64,000 nucleotides of DNA from the IMG/VR virus record IMGVR_UViG_2917886563_000007. One strand, written 5' to 3'. The notes beneath the pieces are model-generated. The model ran no database searches. It had not been told where the DNA came from and saw nothing but the letters and a program-made list of their open reading frames with translations. A program made the translations under genes and the position numbers. The stretch is from a virus. Taxonomy: Duplodnaviria; Heunggongvirae; Uroviricota; Caudoviricetes. Positions 20,325 to 64,000 of the stretch are shown here, piece by piece. How positions within the stretch are numbered: the first letter of the stretch is position 1; each line of letters opens with the position of its first letter.

Positions 20325-21488
20325 TTACACATCATTAGTACCTTCCTTATTTTTTGACTGGGACAAATTTGGGACCGATGGGTTCAGGATCGAGTCTATT
20401 TGCCGTGCGTGTTCGGTAAGGTGATTAGGTGCAAGGTGAGCATATCGACGAACCATTTCGATAGACTCCCAGCCTCCCATTTCCTGTAACACTGACAACG
20501 GGACTCCGGCTTGAACCAGCCAACTTGCCCAGGTGTGTCTCAAGTCGTGAAATCTGAAATCATCAATACCAGCCCGTCTCAGCGCCGCTTTCCAGGCTGT
20601 GTTTGCGTCATACCGCATCTTCCTTACTGTTGGCGCTTTCGTTCCGTCTGGTTTGGTACAGCTTTCCTTGTACACAAATACCCAACGGTGATGATTCCCG
20701 ATTTGTTTTTTCAATACGCGACATGCAGTATCATTCAGCGCAACGCCAATTGCGCGGTTTGATTTACTCTCTTCCGGGTTTATCCATGCCACCCGGCGCT
20801 GCATATCTATTTGTTGCCATTCAAGGTTGATGATGTTCGAGCGTCTTAAACCTGTTGCCAGTGCAAATTCAACAACAGACTTTAATGGCTCCGGACATTC
20901 ATCAATCAGCCTTTGTGCTTCATGAGGCTCCAGCCAGCGGATCCGTTTATTCTTTGGTTGAGGCACTTTAATAATTGGTGCCTTATCCAGCATTTTCCAT
21001 TCACGCTCTGCGGCTCTTAGCAGGGCCTTTATAAATGAAAGATGCGTTGCCTTCGTTGCAACGGACGCTGGTTTTGGCGTGTATTCTGGAACTGGTTTCC
21101 CTTTTTTTCTGCATGCTTCTGCCCTGAGTTTCCAGTTTTCCTCATGACGCCGGTTCGTCATTTTCTGCATTGCTGAATAAATTTTTGATTCAGTAATGTC
21201 TCTTAGTTGCATTCCTGCGAAATGTTGAAGCCAGAATCCGATCCGGCTTTTGTCATCGTCCAGTGATTTTTTATGTGCTTTCTCTTCGAGCCACCTGACA
21301 CACGCCTCCTCGAACGTCATATCAGGTATTTCACCAAGTTTGCTGACCCGCCATGCTTCAGCCTTTAGCTTGTCATGGAGCTCTGTCGCCTGCCTTTTGT
21401 CCTTTGTTCCAAGAGACTGTTTAAATCTTTTACCGTTCGGCAATGTGAAACTGGCGTACCATATTTCACCTCTGCGGAAGAGTGACAT
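20325..21488 (-). CDS. int: tyrosine integrase (P22/DLP12 IntD-like)
   Basis: 387-aa [44 protein letters not shown]… matching P22/DLP12-type Int as recalled; stop codon 14 bp from tRNA repeat. Confidence 0.9.
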
Positions 21489-54078: not shown

Positions 54079-57000
54079 ATGGGTAAAGGCAGCAGTAAGG
54101 GGCATACCCCGCGCGAAGCGAAGGACAACCTGAAATCCACGCAGTTGCTGAGTGTGATCGATGCTATCAGCGAAGGGCCGATTGAAGGTCCGGTGGATGG
54201 ATTAAAAAGCGTGCTGCTGAACAGTACACCGGTGCTGGACAGTGAGGGGAATACCAACATCTCCGGTGTCACGGTGGTGTTCCGGGCAGGTGAGCAGGAG
54301 CAGACACCGCCGGAGGGATTTGAATCCTCCGGTTCCGAGACGGTACTGGGTACGGAAGTGAAATACGACACGCCGATCACCCGGACTATCACGTCTGCAA
54401 ATATCGACCGTCTGCGCTTTACCTTCGGTGTGCAGGCACTGGTGGAAACCACCTCAAAGGGTGACAGGAATCCGTCGGAAGTCCGCCTGCTGGTTCAGAT
54501 ACAACGTAACGGTGGCTGGGTGACAGAAAAAGACATCACCATTAAGGGCAAAACCACGTCGCAGTATCTGGCCTCAGTGGTGGTGGATAACCTGCCGCCG
54601 CGCCCGTTTAATATCCGGATGCGCAGGATGACGCCGGACAGCACCACAGACCAGCTGCAGAACAAAACACTCTGGTCGTCATACACCGAAATCATCGATG
54701 TGAAACAGTGCTACCCGAACACGGCACTGGTTGGCGTACAGGTGGACTCGGAGCAGTTCGGCAGCCAGCAGGTGAGCCGTAATTATCATCTTCGCGGGCG
54801 CATTCTGCAGGTGCCGTCGAACTATAACCCGCAGACGCGACAATACAGCGGTATCTGGGACGGAACGTTTAAGCCAGCATACAGCAACAACATGGCATGG
54901 TGTCTGTGGGATATGCTGACCCACCCGCGCTACGGCATGGGGAAACGTCTTGGTGCGGCGGATGTGGATAAATGGGCGCTGTATGTCATCGGCCAGTACT
55001 GCGACCAGTCAGTGCCGGACGGCTTTGGCGGCACGGAGCCGCGCATCACCTGTAATGCGTACCTGACCACACAGCGCAAGGCGTGGGATGTGCTCAGTGA
55101 TTTCTGCTCGGCGATGCGCTGTATGCCGGTATGGAACGGGCAGACGCTGACGTTCGTGCAGGACCGACCATCAGATAAGGTGTGGACCTATAACCGCAGT
55201 AATGTGGTGATGCCGGATGATGGCGCGCCGTTCCGCTACAGCTTCAGCGCCCTGAAGGACCGCCATAATGCCGTTGAGGTGAACTGGATTGACCCGGATA
55301 ACGGCTGGGAGACGGCGACAGAGCTTGTGGAGGACACGCAGGCCATTGCCCGTTACGGTCGTAACGTCACGAAGATGGATGCCTTTGGCTGTACCAGCCG
55401 GGGGCAGGCGCACCGCGCCGGGCTGTGGCTGATTAAAACGGAACTGCTGGAAACGCAGACCGTGGATTTCAGCGTGGGCGCAGAAGGCCTTCGCCATGTG
55501 CCGGGCGATGTTATTGAAATCTGCGATGATGACTACGCGGGGATCAGCATCGGCGGGCGCGTGCTGGCGGTGAACAGCCAGACGCGGACACTGACGCTCG
55601 ACCGTGAAATCACGCTGCCATCCTCCGGCACCACGCTGATAAGCCTGGTTGACGGTGAGGGTAATCCGGTCAGTGTGGAGGTCCAGTCCGTCACCGACGG
55701 CGTGAAAGTGCAAGTGAGTCGGGTTCCTGACGGGATAGCTGAATACAGCGTATGGGGGCTGAAGCTGCCGACGCTGCGCCAGCGCCTGTTCCGCTGCGTG
55801 AGTATCCGTGAGAATGACGACGGCACGTATGCCATCACCGCTGTGCAGCATGTGCCGGAGAAAGAGGCCATCGTGGATAACGGGGCGCACTTTGACGGCG
55901 ACCAGAGCGGCACGGTGAATGGTGTCACGCCGCCAGCGGTGCAGCATCTGACCGCAGAAGTCACCGCAGACAGCGGGGAATACCAGGTGCTGGCGCGCTG
56001 GGATACGCCGAAGGTGGTGAAGGGGGTGAGCTTTATGCTTCGCCTGACCGTGGCAGCGGATGACGGCAGTGAGCGGCTGGTCAGCACGGCCCGGACGACA
56101 GAAACCACATACCGCTTCACGCAACTGGCGCTGGGAAACTACAGGCTGACAGTCCGGGCGGCAAATGCCTGGGGGCAGCAGGGCGATCCGGCGTCGGTAT
56201 CGTTCCGGATTGCCGCACCGGCAGCGCCGTCGCGGATTGAGCTGACGCCGGGCTATTTTCAGATAACCGCCACGCCGCATCTTGCCGTTTATGACCCGAC
56301 GGTACAGTTTGAATTCTGGTTCTCGGAAAAGCGGATTGCGGATATCAGGCAGGTTGAAACCACAGCCCACTATCTTGGCACGGCGCTGTACTGGATAGCC
56401 GCCAGTATCAATATCAAACCGGGCCATGATTATTATTTTTATATCCGCAGTGTGAACACCGTTGGCAAATCGGCATTCGTGGAGGCTGTCGGTCGGGCGA
56501 GCGATGATGCGGAAGGTTACCTGGATTTTTTCAAAGGCCAGATAACCGAATCCCATCTCGGCAAGGAGCTGCTGGAAAAAGTCGAGCTGACGGAGGATAA
56601 CGCCAGCAAACTGGAGGAGTTCTCGAAAGAGTGGAAAGACGCCAACGATAAATGGAATGCCATGTGGGGCGTCAAAATTGAGCAGACCGAAGACGGCAAA
56701 CATTATGTCGCGGGGCTTGGCCTCAGCATGGAGGATACAGAGGAAGGCAAACTGAGCCAGTTCCTGGTTGCCGCTAACCGTATCGCGTTTATTGACCCGG
56801 CAAACGGGAATGAAACGCCGATGTTTGTGGCGCAGGGCAACCAGATATTCATGAACGAAGTGTTCCTGAAGTATCTGACGGCTCCCACCATTACCAGCGG
56901 CGGCAATCCGCCGGTATTTTCCCTGACACCGGACGGGCGGCTGACGGCGAAAAATGCCGATATCAGCGGTAACGTGAATGCGAACTCCGGGACGCTCAAC

Positions 57001-57492
57001 AACGTCACGATAAATGAGAACTGTACGATTAAGGGAATGCTCGAGGCTACTCAGGTCAGAGGTGACTTCGTTAAAGCTGTATCTAAGCCATTCCCGAAAA
57101 AAACTGGCTCGTGGGGCGATACGGAAACACCAGGCGGGACGGTTACAGTCACCATTTACGATGATCATAACTTTGATCGCCAGATTATTATTCCGCCCAT
57201 TATTTTTAATGGTGTGGCGTATGACGATCCGGGGAGCGGTAATAACCCGGGAGGTACGCGATACACGGGTTATGGTTTTGAAGTTCGCAAAAACGGCGTA
57301 TTAATCGCATCCAGAGAAACTAAAGGAGCCATTCCCGGTAGTTACAGTGCGGTTATTGATATGCCGAGTGGTGGTGGTAGTGTCACTCTGGAGTTTAAGA
57401 TTTTCCAGAAAGGCAATCAGGGCGCAGGTAACATCACAGACTGTACGGTGATTGTGACCAAAAAAGCTGCTTCCGGTATCAGTATCCGTTGA
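54079..57492 (+). CDS. J: central tail fibre / host specificity protein J, with divergent C-terminal receptor-binding region
   Basis: 1137-aa ORF; N-terminal about 990 aa match lambda gpJ as recalled, last about 150 aa differ. Confidence 0.9.
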
Positions 57493-57552
57493 AATATTTA
57501 TAACCCCAATACGGGCGCCAGAAATGGCGCCTTTTATATTTGTGGAGTGAGT

Positions 57553-59922
57553 ATGGCAGTACAGATTTCAGGTGTGCTGAAAGATGGTGCGGGAAAACCA
57601 ATACAGAACTGCACTATTCAACTGAAGGCAAAGCGTAACAGCACCACGGTACTGGTGAACACGGTGGCCTCTGAAAATCCGGATGAAGCCGGGCGTTACA
57701 GCATGGATGTTGAGTATGGCCAGTACAGCGTTATCCTGCTGGTTGAAGGTTTTCCGCCTTCACATGCCGGAACCATTACCGTCTATGAAGGTTCCAGTCC
57801 GGGGACGCTGAATGATTTTCTCGGTGCCATGACGGAAGATGATGTCATGCCGGAGGCATTGCGCCGTTTTGAGGCTATGGTGGAAGAAGCAGCACGTAAC
57901 GCTGAAGCTGCCTCTCAGAGCGCAGCGGCGGCAAAGAAATCCGAAACTGCAGCGGCATCATCGAAGAACGCGGCGAAAACCTCAGAAACGAATGCAGCTA
58001 ACAGCGCACAGGCGGCAGCGGCCTCACAGACTGCATCGGCAAACTCCGCGACAGCAGCCAAAAAATCAGAAACCAACGCGAAAAATAGCGAAACAGCCGC
58101 AAAGACGAGCGAAACCAACGCAAAGTCCAGCCAGACGGCAGCGAAAACCAGCGAAACGAATGCCAAAGCCAGTGAAACTGCGGCGAAAAACAGCCAGGCT
58201 GCAGCAGCTGAAAGTGAGAGCGCGGCAGCCGGTTCTGCGACTTCAGCAGCCGGATCAGCAACTGCTGCGGTTAACAGTCAGAAAGCAGCGAAGACGAGTG
58301 AAACTAACGCAAAGTCCAGCCAGACGGCAGCGAAGACCAGCGAAACAAATGCCAAAGCCAGCGAAACTGCGGCGAAAAACAGTCAGGATGCAGCGGCCCA
58401 AAGCGAGAGTGCCGCAGCTGGTTCTGCAAGTGCGGCGGCTTCTTCTGCCACTGCATCAGCCAACAGTCAAAAAGCTGCAAAAACCAGTGAAACCAACGCA
58501 AAGGCGAGCGAGACTGCGGCGGCTAACTCGGCGAAAGCATCCGCTGCAAGCCAGACAGCGGCTAAAGCAAGTGAAGATGCAGCCAGGGAGTACGCAAGCC
58601 AGGCAGCTGAGCCGTATAAACAAGTTTTGCAGCCGTTGCCTGATGTGTGGATACCGTTTAATGACTCGATGGATATGATCACCGGATTTGGCCCGGGATA
58701 TAAAAAAATAACAGTGCGCGATGATGTGGTCACTATACCATCCGACAAAATTGTCCCGTTTTCCCGCGCGAGTTCCGCGACCTATATCAATAAGTCCGGC
58801 GCTCTTACCATTGCAGAAATTAATGAGCCACGTTTTGAAAAAGAAGGGCTGTTAATTGAAGGGCAGAGAACTAACTATCTAAAAAATTCTAATACACCGG
58901 AATTGTGGTACTACCACAGTTTACTGGCGAAAGAGTATGGGGTTGATAATTACGGTTTTAATTATGCAACCGTCACCGTGACAGACAGTCTTGTAGGCAC
59001 AACCAGTAGTTATCAGATTCATAGTGTAACAGGAGAGAACAGGTTTTCTCTGTCCATCGGTGAAACCTGCACTTTTTCTGCCCGCTTTCGTGGAGTTAAT
59101 TCACGTTGTCGCGTCCATATATCTCTTGTTATTGGCGAAAATGTTAAAACATCCGTTGATGTATGTCTGGAGCCAGATACAGGTGAGGTTAAGGCGTACG
59201 GTAATAAGGCGCTGGTGACATTCAGAACGGAAAAACAGGGGGACTGGTGTTACTTTGAAACAACATATACCGCCGCAGAGAATATTGACGAAGTGGTATG
59301 CGGTTTTTTTATAACCAATCCTGAAGATGGTGGTTTTTCTTCTGATTCGTCATTAACAATGACTACGCCGCAAATTGAAAAAGGGCCATGCGCTTCATCG
59401 TTTATTATTTCCGGAAACACACCAACCACGCGCGCCAGTGATATGGTTATTTTTTCAACCAGAAATAACATAAGTTCTGTCCCTTTAAGCTGTCTTGTTG
59501 AAATACATAAAAATTGGGACTCTACGCCAAATCAGGCCCCACGAATTTTAACCACTATTGGCGTGGCGACTAATGATGAACAACTGGTATTTGCTTTCAG
59601 GAAGCCTACAAGTCCGGATGTAGAGCCTTTACCTTATGTTCAGTTTGGAGTGAGATCTGCATATCTTAGTCCATCTGTGAAGGCCGGGCGCAAAATGATT
59701 GCTGGTTTTGTCTGTAATAGCTCGACTGAATTTCGTTGCTGTTGTAATGGTTACCTGTCACCTGTTCAGACTTCGTCATGGAAGAATACCGGAGCTGCAC
59801 ATGAAATACGTATTGGGGGAACTTCTGCTGGCGGAGACCGCCACTTGTTTGGTCACGTTCGTAACCTGAGAATATGGCATAAAGAATTAACTGATGCGCA
59901 AATGGGGGAGAGTATTAAATGA
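57553..59922 (+). CDS. stf: side tail fibre protein (Stf-like N-terminus, repeat region, distinct C-terminal jelly-roll-like domain)
   Basis: ORF 57547..59922; MAVQISGVLKDGAGKPIQNCTIQLKAKRNSTTV… as lambda Stf N-terminus; SETNAK/TAAK repeat region; C-terminus ends …HVRNLRIWHKELTDAQMGESIK. Confidence 0.8.
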   Translation: MAVQISGVLKDGAGKPIQNCTIQLKAKRNSTTVLVNTVASENPDEAGRYSMDVEYGQYSVILLVEGFPPSHAGTITVYEGSSPGTLNDFLGAMTEDDVMPEALRRFEAMVEEAARNAEAASQSAAAAKKSETAAASSKNAAKTSETNAANSAQAAAASQTASANSATAAKKSETNAKNSETAAKTSETNAKSSQTAAKTSETNAKASETAAKNSQAAAAESESAAAGSATSAAGSATAAVNSQKAAKTSETNAKSSQTAAKTSETNAKASETAAKNSQDAAAQSESAAAGSASAAASSATASANSQKAAKTSETNAKASETAAANSAKASAASQTAAKASEDAAREYASQAAEPYKQVLQPLPDVWIPFNDSMDMITGFGPGYKKITVRDDVVTIPSDKIVPFSRASSATYINKSGALTIAEINEPRFEKEGLLIEGQRTNYLKNSNTPELWYYHSLLAKEYGVDNYGFNYATVTVTDSLVGTTSSYQIHSVTGENRFSLSIGETCTFSARFRGVNSRCRVHISLVIGENVKTSVDVCLEPDTGEVKAYGNKALVTFRTEKQGDWCYFETTYTAAENIDEVVCGFFITNPEDGGFSSDSSLTMTTPQIEKGPCASSFIISGNTPTTRASDMVIFSTRNNISSVPLSCLVEIHKNWDSTPNQAPRILTTIGVATNDEQLVFAFRKPTSPDVEPLPYVQFGVRSAYLSPSVKAGRKMIAGFVCNSSTEFRCCCNGYLSPVQTSSWKNTGAAHEIRIGGTSAGGDRHLFGHVRNLRIWHKELTDAQMGESIK
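58100..58440 (+). repeat. tandem ~189-bp coding repeats inside stf
   Basis: 58101-58250 and 58290-58440 are near-identical (…gcaaagtccagccagacggcagcgaa(a/g)accagcgaaac…); further degenerate copies upstream. Confidence 0.8.
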
Positions 59923-60200
59923 AAGATTTAACACTCAAATTTGCAGACAGGGCCGACTTTTCGGCCTTCATGGATAGCACGGGCTATTATGATGACGAGT
60001 CGATGCAGGATGATATTCTTATTGACGTGATAGGTAACGTGTACAAAGAAACCGGAGAACTTACTGAAGATGGCGAGCCGGTATGTGTTAAGGAAGACGG
60101 ATATTTTGTAAACATGCGCATCATTAATGATGTGAAAACACCGTCAATATTCGATGAATACGTGGTTGCTGTTGAGCATCAACTTCGTGGCTGGATGTGA
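59919..60200 (+). CDS. hypothetical protein (fibre-associated position)
   Basis: 93-aa acidic ORF overlapping stf stop by 4 nt. Confidence 0.45.
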   Translation: MKDLTLKFADRADFSAFMDSTGYYDDESMQDDILIDVIGNVYKETGELTEDGEPVCVKEDGYFVNMRIINDVKTPSIFDEYVVAVEHQLRGWM

Positions 60201-60209
60201 GGAAGAAAA

Positions 60210-61250
60210 ATGGCTACATCGACAGTAATTCCTGATGACATCAAAACGCTAAAATCCGATGTTAGTAAACTAAAAACTGATCAAGGAAGCTATGCAACAA
60301 AATCATATGTAGACAATAAAACAACATGGAATAGTTATTGTAATGTAATCTATGATCAAAAGTCATTGCCCACAACTGGAACTATATTTAGCGGTAAGAT
60401 GCACTTGTCAAATAAGACAGGAGAAACCGAAAACGCTTATAGTGAGATGTACACCAGAAAAAATATTGACGGCACTAAAGATACAATGACAAGGATTGTC
60501 ACACACAATGGAACAAAAGGTATCTTCTGGGATTTTAGCGATCTTTACGGTGGGACATTGATTTTCCCAGGAAATGAAGGTTACTTGAAAATGGGTAAGT
60601 GCCTCATGTCTTATGGGAATCGTGTTGATAACGCCATGATTAAATTTGATTACACAGACACATTACAAATCAAATATGCTAATCATGGGTCAACCATGAC
60701 ATTAAATACACAGGGAACCGCTCACGCTGGCGTAACAACTCGAATATGGGGCAATTCTAGCCGCCCGGTTGTTTATGAAGTTGGCGTAGATGAGGCTCTG
60801 TATATGTTCTACGCACAGAAAACTACCAGCAATACCTACGAATTAACGGTTAACGGCGCGTGTAATGCAAGTGCATTTAATCAAGGCTCTGACCGGGATC
60901 TGAAAGACAATATTCAGGTGATCGATAATGCAACCGACCGCATTCGTAAAATGAACGGCTATACATACACGCTTAAAGAAAACGGTATGCCTTACGCTGG
61001 TGTTATTGCACAAGAAGCCCTGGAAGCCATCCCCGAAGCCGTAGGGTCTATGATGAAATATCCAGACGGTGGGAGTGGATTAGATGGAGAAGAAGGTGAA
61101 CGGTATTACACTGTAGATTATTCTGGTGTTACTGGCTTGCTTGTTCAGGTAGCCAGAGAGTCAGACGACAGAATAACAGCACTGGAAGAAGAAAACGCAG
61201 AATTAAGACAAAGATTATCTGCAATTGAGGCGACGCTTGTGTCTAAATAA
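60210..61250 (+). CDS. tail fibre/tailspike protein with C-terminal intramolecular chaperone (peptidase S74-like) domain
   Basis: 346-aa ORF; C-terminal …SDRDLKDNIQVIDNATDRIRKMNGYTYTLKENG…AGVIAQEALEAIPEAV…DYSGVTGLLVQVARE…ITALEEENAELRQRL typical of autoproteolytic chaperone domains of phage fibres. Confidence 0.6.
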   Translation: MATSTVIPDDIKTLKSDVSKLKTDQGSYATKSYVDNKTTWNSYCNVIYDQKSLPTTGTIFSGKMHLSNKTGETENAYSEMYTRKNIDGTKDTMTRIVTHNGTKGIFWDFSDLYGGTLIFPGNEGYLKMGKCLMSYGNRVDNAMIKFDYTDTLQIKYANHGSTMTLNTQGTAHAGVTTRIWGNSSRPVVYEVGVDEALYMFYAQKTTSNTYELTVNGACNASAFNQGSDRDLKDNIQVIDNATDRIRKMNGYTYTLKENGMPYAGVIAQEALEAIPEAVGSMMKYPDGGSGLDGEEGERYYTVDYSGVTGLLVQVARESDDRITALEEENAELRQRLSAIEATLVSK

Positions 61251-61586: not shown

Positions 61587-61894
61587 AAAGTCGCAGCAAC
61601 TTGTCATGGCGGAATACTGCGGCTGGCTGGTGAGCTATCGATAGTGCGAGTATGGAATGATTTCCAGCCATTATAGATTTTACGTATTTTTTTGCATGAG
61701 AGGATTTGCACCACCTCCCACCGACCATCTATGACTATACGCCACCATTTCTAGGGCTGCTATGTGCCAGAAGCGGACATTATGACAGCCAGGAAGCCCT
61801 TATCTGAACGAAAAAAATAATGTCGTTGGGATGGTTTACTTTACAATGTCAGTTTTAAACAGCCTACAAAACAGGTGATCACGTGCATGCCAAC

Positions 61895-62785
61895 ATGATT
61901 GAATACCTAAATATTTTCATACAGGTTGTTGAGCAGGGTAGCTTCACTAAAGCTGCTGATGTACTTCAGATCCATCGCCCCACCGTGAGCAAAGCAATAC
62001 AGCAGATAGAGCATGATCTGGGTGTAAAACTCATTTATCGCACAACCCGAAAGCTGAGCGTTACTGCTGAAGGGGATGAGTTCTATCATCATGCCAGGCA
62101 TGTCCTGGCCGAAGTTAATGACATGATGGCCAGTTTTTCACCGACTCTTCCACCGCGAGGACGCCTGAGACTTGATGTGCCCCTGGCGCTGGCGCATTCC
62201 ATATTGATCCCTAATCTTAGGCATTTTCAGACACTGTATCCAGGTATTGAAGTTGTGCTGGTTTCTTCGGATAAAAAAACTGATTTGATCACGGAAGGCG
62301 TAGATTGCCTTATCCGCCTGGGTGCGCTTCAGGATTCTAGTTTTATATCCAGACGTCTTGGTGACATCCGGATGGTTACCTGTGCAGCCCCGTCTTACCT
62401 GCAGCAGCATGAGCGGCCAGAAACACTTGCGGATCTGGATAAACATCGGGCAATTAACTTTTTTAGCGACCACAGTCGTGACGTCATGGAATGGAAGTTT
62501 ATCGAAAACGGGAGCATTGTTTCGCTACGTCCTGCGGGCAGCCTGCTGGTTGATAATTCCGATATTCTGCTTTCCTGTGCTCTGGCTGGTCTGGGCATTA
62601 TCCAAGCTACCTATGATGCCGTTGCTCCCCATATTGCTTCCGGCGCTCTTGAAGAGATTCTGCCGCAATACCCATCGGTGTCAAAGCCCGTGTCAGTGAT
62701 GTATCCCGACAGGCGCTACCTTTCTCCAAAAGTGCGCGTCTTTATCGACTGGTTCAGTGATGTTCTGGCCACGCAGATCCGCTGA
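61895..62785 (+). CDS. LysR-family transcriptional regulator
   Basis: ORF 61883..62785; N-terminal HTH (…GSFTKAADVLQIHRPTVSKAIQQIE…LGVKLIYRTTRKLSVT…). Confidence 0.85.
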   Translation: MIEYLNIFIQVVEQGSFTKAADVLQIHRPTVSKAIQQIEHDLGVKLIYRTTRKLSVTAEGDEFYHHARHVLAEVNDMMASFSPTLPPRGRLRLDVPLALAHSILIPNLRHFQTLYPGIEVVLVSSDKKTDLITEGVDCLIRLGALQDSSFISRRLGDIRMVTCAAPSYLQQHERPETLADLDKHRAINFFSDHSRDVMEWKFIENGSIVSLRPAGSLLVDNSDILLSCALAGLGIIQATYDAVAPHIASGALEEILPQYPSVSKPVSVMYPDRRYLSPKVRVFIDWFSDVLATQIR

Positions 62786-62934
62786 AGCAGGCGGATTGTT
62801 AATGGATAATTAATACTGAAGTTCCCTCTCAGCTATTTCTGGTGTGTTTGTAACAACGTAGATTGTTCACAAATGATTCGGGCATCCCTTCGGCATTATT
62901 CTGAAGGAGTGCCTTTAACTGAAGAGAGCTGAAT

Positions 62935-63927
62935 ATGTCTAAAGTTATTACCTTTAACCGTACCGGAGGCCCGGAAGTGCTGGAATTTGTTGATGTACAG
63001 GTGCCTGCGCCGACAGCGGGTGAAGTGCAGATCCGCGTACATGCGATAGGTATCAACCGTGCAGAAATCATGTACCGCAACGGCCAGTATGTTATTGAGC
63101 CGGAATTTCCGGCACGTCTTGGTTATGAAGCGGCTGGCGTTGTGCAGGCCGTAGGTGAGAATGTTGATGAGTTTACCATTGGAGATCTGGTCAGCGTTAT
63201 CCCTTCATTTATGTTTAATGAATACGGTATGTACGGTGAAGTGGTCAATGCACCTGTGCATGCTATCGTGAAGCATCCTGAAAACCTTTCTTTTGAGGAA
63301 GCCGCTGCAAGCTGGATGATGTATGTCACCGCTTATGGTGCGCTGGTTGAATATGGCAATCTTCAGGCTGGTCAGAATGTTGTGATCCGCGCAGCATCAA
63401 GCAGCGTAGGTCTGGCTGCCATACAGATAGCTAACATGCTGGGTGCAAACCCAATTGCACTCACTCGGACCTCTGAAAAAAGTGAAATGCTACTGAAAGC
63501 TGGCGCAGCTGCCGTCATTGCTACTGCAGAGCTGGATATGGTTGCTGAAATCAATCGAACAACAGATGGCGTAGGTGCCCATATTGTTTTTGATCCCGTC
63601 GGCGGGCCGGACGTGGCAAAACTGACGCAGGTGATGGCATCACAGGGCATGTTTTTCCAGTATGGCGCGCTCGATAGCCGTGACATGCTTGTGCCTGTAT
63701 TTAATATTCTCGGTAAGCATCTCACTCTGCGTGGATATGAGCTGTTTGAAATCACGACTGATTCTGAAAAAATGGCGCGCGCAAAATCCTTCATAACAGA
63801 AGGCTTACGAGCTGGCAAACTGAAACCGGTCATCGATAAAACGTTCCCGTTCGAAGAGATTGCAGACGCCCAGCGCTATATGGAGGCCAATGGCCAGGTA
63901 GGCAAAATAGTCGTGACCGTTGAGTAA
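62935..63927 (+). CDS. zinc-type alcohol dehydrogenase / quinone oxidoreductase family protein
   Basis: 330-aa ORF; MDR fold signatures (…GEVQIRVHAIGINRAE…, …AASSSVGLAAIQIA…). Confidence 0.8.
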   Translation: MSKVITFNRTGGPEVLEFVDVQVPAPTAGEVQIRVHAIGINRAEIMYRNGQYVIEPEFPARLGYEAAGVVQAVGENVDEFTIGDLVSVIPSFMFNEYGMYGEVVNAPVHAIVKHPENLSFEEAAASWMMYVTAYGALVEYGNLQAGQNVVIRAASSSVGLAAIQIANMLGANPIALTRTSEKSEMLLKAGAAAVIATAELDMVAEINRTTDGVGAHIVFDPVGGPDVAKLTQVMASQGMFFQYGALDSRDMLVPVFNILGKHLTLRGYELFEITTDSEKMARAKSFITEGLRAGKLKPVIDKTFPFEEIADAQRYMEANGQVGKIVVTVE

Positions 63928-64000
63928 TCCTTACCACAGCATTTTATAAATGAGCCTGGTGAAGCCTGGATATTATCCAGGCTTCGATGCAATGGCTCCG

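Follow-up and report, generated by a model that had tools for sequence, protein, structure and literature searches.

A lambdoid prophage J gene with a phage 434-type receptor-binding domain and OmpC as its likely receptor

Introduction

The J protein of phage lambda (NP_040600.1; structures 8IYK, 8XCK and 8XCJ) binds the porin LamB. In the gpJ-LamB structure, a trimeric Ig-like domain puts four bottom loops into the extracellular lumen of the porin. Upon binding, the domains spread, the beta-prism fibre twists and the tail tip opens (PMC11101478). Lambda carrying the J of phage 434 uses OmpC, the receptor of 434, and not LamB (PMC3509688, PMC11101478, PMC12502783). The part of the protein concerned has been delimited by Maddamsetti et al. 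(2018), who concluded that a 'specificity region' of J, residues 960-1132, recombines on its own and has indel hot spots, at 1012, 1048/9, 1077/8 and 1107, that define J clades (PMC6646904).

Natural J domains have also been used for DNA delivery, as chimeric lambda particles that carry them deliver DNA via OmpC (Brödel et al. 2024, PMC11338833). For example, the A8 gpJ chimera (9WCA; 9WCB with OmpC) has the C-terminus of a natural prophage J on lambda J, and its receptor is switched to OmpC. The gpJ chimeras A8 and 1A2 differ in the range of OmpC variants that they use (PMC11338833). The J domain of phi330, a separate class, also binds OmpC (PMC12502783). Because the OmpC-binding domains of A8 and phi330 are only ~35-45% identical to that of 434 and its class, sequence class and receptor are not one-to-one. 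In phage 21 and lambda, one to four mutations in J can lead to the use of a different porin (PMC11336670, PMC6646904). Phage 21 has a J gene with 94% nucleotide identity to that of lambda and uses LamB; its OmpC use evolved in the laboratory (PMC11336670). The phage 21 papers were considered as an OmpC precedent for 434-type domains and set aside, since the J of this phage is of the LamB-using lambda type (PMC11336670). A 2026 receptor-prediction preprint was also discarded as a source because it covers the GpJ of Drexlerviridae and not lambdoid J.

Here, we describe the J gene of a prophage in a 64,000-nucleotide stretch of DNA (the window; IMG/VR record IMGVR_UViG_2917886563_000007, Caudoviricetes). 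According to the initial annotation, this J follows lambda J for most of its length and then carries, from position 56900 to the end of the gene, a replaced receptor-binding region, which was taken to suggest modular exchange and a different receptor specificity. Our analysis makes it very likely that J is a natural mosaic of a lambda/434-type backbone and a 434-type domain, which arose by recombination and has OmpC as its likely receptor.

The J gene and its surroundings

J is a single intact open reading frame (Table 1). Its translation contains six Pfam families in the lambda order (FNIII-A_GpJ, Phage-tail_3, Ig_J, Ig_J_second, Phage_Tail_Tip and Ig_GpJ_C), all scoring above the curated cutoffs. 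The protein has the architecture of gpJ, with FNIII-A, a Phage-tail_3 hub, two Ig-like domains, a tail-tip fibre and a C-terminal receptor-binding domain. The reading frames upstream encode 853, 109, 232, 247 and 223 aa and complete the tail-gene order H-M-L-K-I-J; all six genes are intact and of lambda-like length, and the same order follows from the Pfam labels of the identical contigs L005 and L006. An exact public match to the protein, WP_135560170.1, comes from the host, Escherichia sp. E4736 (assembly GCA_004745245.1), and is labelled 'host specificity protein J'. The whole-gene dN/dS against 434, 0.08 (Nei-Gojobori), indicates that J is under purifying selection. A minus-strand frame of 665 aa inside J (55171-57168) was considered as an overlapping gene and rejected, as the antisense frames of lambda and 434 differ (564 and 510 aa, with different ends). 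Most likely, the frame merely has few stop codons and does not represent a conserved gene.

Downstream, there is no lom between J and the side tail fibre gene stf (57493-57552), and the stf start codon at 57553 lies 20 nt after the J terminator. Lambda and 434 have a lom (Ail/PagC/OmpX) gene after J, so that the next gene is lom in 434 and stf in the window. A prophage of E. coli PSS-04 (L004) and contigs L005 and L006 are lom-less like the window. The PSS-04 prophage also shares the order J, stf, a 93-aa frame and a 346-aa fibre gene; it resides in E. coli, where stf carries a pseudogene annotation. The 93-aa frame is of unknown function (PHROG 1361), and the 346-aa tail fibre protein bears a Peptidase_S74 intramolecular-chaperone domain (PHROG 4563). 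The whole side-fibre region (57553-61250) is unlike lambda stf/tfa and looks like a second, independent host-range module. Further out, the left end of the window (1-21500) holds proA, tRNA-Thr and an island with a DNA cytosine methyltransferase, an HNH endonuclease and a CbtA toxin. The right flank (61600-64000) encodes a LysR regulator and a Zn-dependent alcohol dehydrogenase, and it matches only 17 of 5426 complete E. coli genomes, three of them over most of its length.

Table 1. Features of the J region and the prophage integrase, in window coordinates
Feature	Position	Strand	Evidence
Integrase of the prophage	20325-21488	-	
Gene J, tip attachment/central tail fibre protein, 1137 aa, intact	54079-57492	+	Open reading frame, translation, Pfam, alignment to 434 J
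Conserved J backbone, aa 1-983: hub domains, FNIII/Ig domains, helical shaft, beta-prism fibre	54079-57027	+	951/983 identical to lambda, 959/983 to 434
434-type (h434) C-terminal receptor-binding domain, aa 984-1137 plus stop codon (by sequence and model)	57028-57492	+	144/154 identical to 434 J, ~36% to lambda J; PF12421; PDB matches; AlphaFold/Foldseek
Variable stretch, aa 1004-1027	57088-57159	+	6/10 differences from 434 J; surrounds the indel equivalent to lambda residue 1012
Intrinsic terminator after J, hairpin plus T-tract	57513-57542	+	Terminator scan; comparison of the aligned 434, lambda and E. coli PSS-04 sequences; OL657226 also has a terminator annotated there
Side tail fibre gene, stf-like, 789 aa	57553-59922	+	Pfam phage_tail_N, PHROG 1419; same arrangement in L004, L005 and L006

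Where J departs from lambda

Overall, J is 88% identical to lambda J (BLASTP; reference NC_001416), and the differences are unevenly spread. Identity is 97% along residues 1-983 and ~36% over the last 154 residues, where four indels occur at lambda positions ~1011/1012, ~1044-1051, 1078/1079 and around 1107. These values bear out the initial annotation in that J tracks lambda J over most of its length and that roughly the last 150 residues are unlike the LamB-binding domain. The peptide that it quoted from this region is accurate and begins at residue 979. Judged from the alignment, the C-terminal divergence from lambda is far beyond chance or ordinary drift.

The edge of the divergent region can be located on the nucleotide sequence. 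Compared with lambda in steps of 100 nt, identity stays at 0.86-0.99 as far as 56978, drops to 0.70 over 56979-57078 and is 0.39-0.56 between 57079 and the stop codon. In 30-nt windows, lambda and 434 are 0.87-1.00 identical through 56988, with a drop from 56989, and by 57049 both the J described here and that of 434 are at ~0.50 or lower to lambda. As the identity profiles to lambda fall there, the true change-point is placed at ~57000-57050, corresponding to J codons ~975-990. The divergent C-terminus reported from 56900 onward is therefore real, but its boundary lies ~100-130 nt further downstream.

A separate irregularity is seen at residues 941-983 (56879-56988), where synonymous divergence from both lambda and 434 is unusually high (dS 0.77, nucleotide identity 0.83-0.86). 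Between lambda and 434, identity in this segment is 0.93-0.97. From these values, the segment is best described as a separate mosaic patch adjoining the domain boundary.

The C-terminal domain is of the 434 type

The J of phage 434 (UMO75286.1, OL657226) and the h434 allele in lambda h434 imm21 (OM418627) have 1137 aa, like the J described here, and align with it at 97% identity with 0 gaps; in the alignment with 434 J, all 1137 residues are paired. Within the C-terminal domain, 144 of 154 residues are identical to 434 (94%), and the alignment is gapless. The domain is thus collinear with that of 434 and lambda h434; ten substitutions and a nucleotide identity of ~91% set it apart from 434. 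The comparison with lambda J 984-1132 is quite different, as indels fall in all four loop regions and change the loop lengths, and the domain segment has no megablast-level similarity to lambda. Pairwise alignment had been proposed in the initial annotation as the way to check its reading; run against the J proteins of lambda and 434, it places the C-terminus outside lambda-type variation and within the 434 type. On this evidence, the divergent C-terminus is assigned to the phage 434 (h434) allele, which is common and already described.

The domain is nonetheless recognizably related to that of lambda. Ig_GpJ_C (PF12421) matches residues 1001-1136 with 86.8 bits against a cutoff of 26.2 (E=1.7e-24). 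When residues 984-1137 are searched in isolation, the best PDB match is A8 gpJ (E=9e-27), which belongs to another allele class and is ~43% identical in the domain; lambda J is also matched (E=3e-18). An AlphaFold2 model of the domain, a monomer of moderate confidence (mean pLDDT 71.8, 80-94 in the beta-sandwich core), has the beta-sandwich fold of the lambda gpJ domain. Its four best Foldseek matches are nearly tied (E ~1e-15, TMq ~0.67): two are structures of the lambda central fibre (8xck, 8xcj), and two show A8 gpJ, alone (9wca) or with OmpC (9wcb). The model's loops at residues 1004-1015, 1050-1059, 1081-1086 and 1112-1116 correspond to the four indel sites. A swap for a non-homologous, foreign domain was rejected, because the domain, taken by itself, shows significant similarity to that of lambda by sequence and by fold alike. 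Taken with the model, the region called 'replaced' is, relative to lambda only, a deeply diverged allele of the same Ig-like domain. Lambda J has the same architecture and Ig-like fold, and its trimer and tail-opening mechanism are presumably the same.

A modular and widespread allele

Among 106 database homologues that span the whole domain, identity to the J domain is bimodal, at either 80-97% or 35-50%, with none between 55% and 80%. Clustering at 70% identity yields a 434 class that includes the J described here, an A8 class, a P0046-like class, and lambda alone. Because the backbone is about equally close to lambda and 434 (951 and 959 of 983 residues, respectively), one backbone occurs with different domains. 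At ~95-97% nucleotide identity, it carries a lambda-type domain in lambda and a 434-type domain in 434 and in the window. At the megablast level, 254 phage records match the J gene, and 74 of these also match the domain. The 74 have it at 89-94% nucleotide identity and include 434, lambda h434 imm21, mEp460, cdtI and many long-tailed Stx phages. The match to 434 extends beyond the J stop codon and takes in the terminator hairpin (57513-57532), whereas the lambda terminator differs. Domain and downstream terminator are one segment, common to 434 and many E. coli prophages but not to lambda.

Together with the work of Maddamsetti et al. (PMC6646904), the shared backbone, the 74 of 254 records and the run through the terminator support the modular exchange that had been suggested for this gene. 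The specificity region defined in that study covers the same region and the same four indel sites, and the J described here is a further instance of it, with no difference in kind. The 434-type allele would have originated by homologous recombination within the conserved fibre region, and the divergence of the domain would then have been concentrated in its receptor-facing loops. A side observation concerns the database homologue P0046, whose domain is chimeric: its last ~45 residues match the 434 class with one substitution, and the preceding ~110 belong to another class. Its sequence suggests recombination inside the domain, besides at its edge.

The two alleles differ greatly in how often they are met. 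Of 5426 complete E. coli genomes, 2111 contain DNA of the 434 class of domain and 98 that of the lambda class, the latter always at 99% identity or more; the five lambda-class matches listed are K-12, B and DE3-type laboratory strains. Among natural prophages, lambda is the exception and the 434 type is the far commoner allele. As the LamB-binding domain of lambda is the rare type, a lambdoid J that 'differs from lambda' is the expected state.

A variable stretch near the first loop

Within the domain, six of the ten differences from 434 J fall in residues 1004-1027 (P1004, T1009, S1011, D1014, G1019 and Y1027), and most of these six residues do not occur in 23 further representatives of the 434 class. 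At 57079-57138, nucleotide identity to 434 is as low as 0.73-0.80. The model loop at residues 1004-1015 has a lower pLDDT and adjoins the site equivalent to the receptor-critical residue 1012 of lambda. By the Nei-Gojobori method against 434, dN is 0.123 in residues 1000-1030 and 0.019 in the rest of the domain; the same method, crude as it is, gave no sign of positive selection in residues 1000-1030 (dN/dS 0.22). The window-type domain occurs at a nucleotide identity of at least 95% in only 8 of the 5426 E. coli genomes. One carrier of this sub-allele is the PSS-04 prophage, whose J (WP_338381216.1, NZ_AP027666) is identical to the one described here at 236 of 237 positions over residues 901-1137.

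Receptor and alternative readings

From its homology to the J of 434, the J described here most likely binds OmpC instead of LamB. The different receptor specificity proposed in the initial annotation is supported by a domain 94% identical to that of a phage whose J gives OmpC use in place of LamB. In a mechanism modelled on lambda gpJ with LamB and A8 gpJ with OmpC, the distal loops of the three fibre-tip domains would enter a trimeric porin at its extracellular mouth. For the 434-type allele, this porin would be OmpC and not LamB. Binding would then spread the J domains, twist the beta-prism fibre and open the tail tip, leading to DNA ejection. A search of the literature on the phages with the closest alleles, HannyBb and PhiR11_1/ECOR13 (~94% nucleotide identity), found no receptor data.

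That the C-terminus merely reflects the usual variation of lambda J and still recognizes LamB is hardly credible. Such a reading could appeal to the fold family and Pfam domain shared with lambda, and to phage 21, which uses LamB with a J 94% identical to lambda's in nucleotides (PMC11336670). However, identity of ~36% with four loop indels, next to 97% in the preceding 983 residues, together with the bimodal class structure and a near-match in 434, which does not use LamB, argues strongly against it. It is also improbable that the prophage is a defective remnant in which J is never used and the type of domain is without functional consequence. The stf neighbour is annotated as a pseudogene in the related PSS-04 prophage; nothing in the window itself speaks positively for decay, whereas neither J nor any tail gene upstream of it is disrupted or shortened, an integrase is present, and the low whole-gene dN/dS of J points to purifying selection.

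A subtler alternative accepts the 434-class domain and supposes that the variant at residues 1004-1027 has shifted its specificity, either to one divergent OmpC variant, perhaps that of cryptic-clade Escherichia, or to another porin such as OmpF, and away from the K-12 OmpC that 434 uses. The clustering of six of the ten differences in this stretch, their scarcity among the 23 representatives, the raised dN, the rarity of the sub-allele in E. coli and a host classed only as unclassified Escherichia are all consistent with such a shift. So are the differing OmpC-variant ranges of the A8 and 1A2 chimeras (PMC11338833) and the small number of mutations that can be enough to change the porin used by lambda and phage 21 (PMC6646904, PMC11336670). 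Yet dN/dS in the stretch is low, the same sub-allele occurs in PSS-04, an ordinary human-faecal E. coli, and outside this stretch the domain, with its other three predicted loops, hardly differs from that of 434. We regard a shift of this kind as unlikely; if it were true, the sub-allele would show natural retargeting on a fine scale inside a single class of domains.

A mosaic J with a 434-type domain directed at OmpC is thus the reading that we prefer. Beyond correct annotation its importance is small, as it adds a further example of the well-documented modular specificity region of J. Natural C-terminal J modules already retarget lambda-based DNA-delivery particles to OmpC (PMC11338833), and the sub-allele described here could add one variant at most. 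For the phage and its hosts, the prediction by analogy is that the prophage, if inducible, would infect via OmpC and not LamB, so that lamB (maltose-regulon) resistance would not protect hosts against it.
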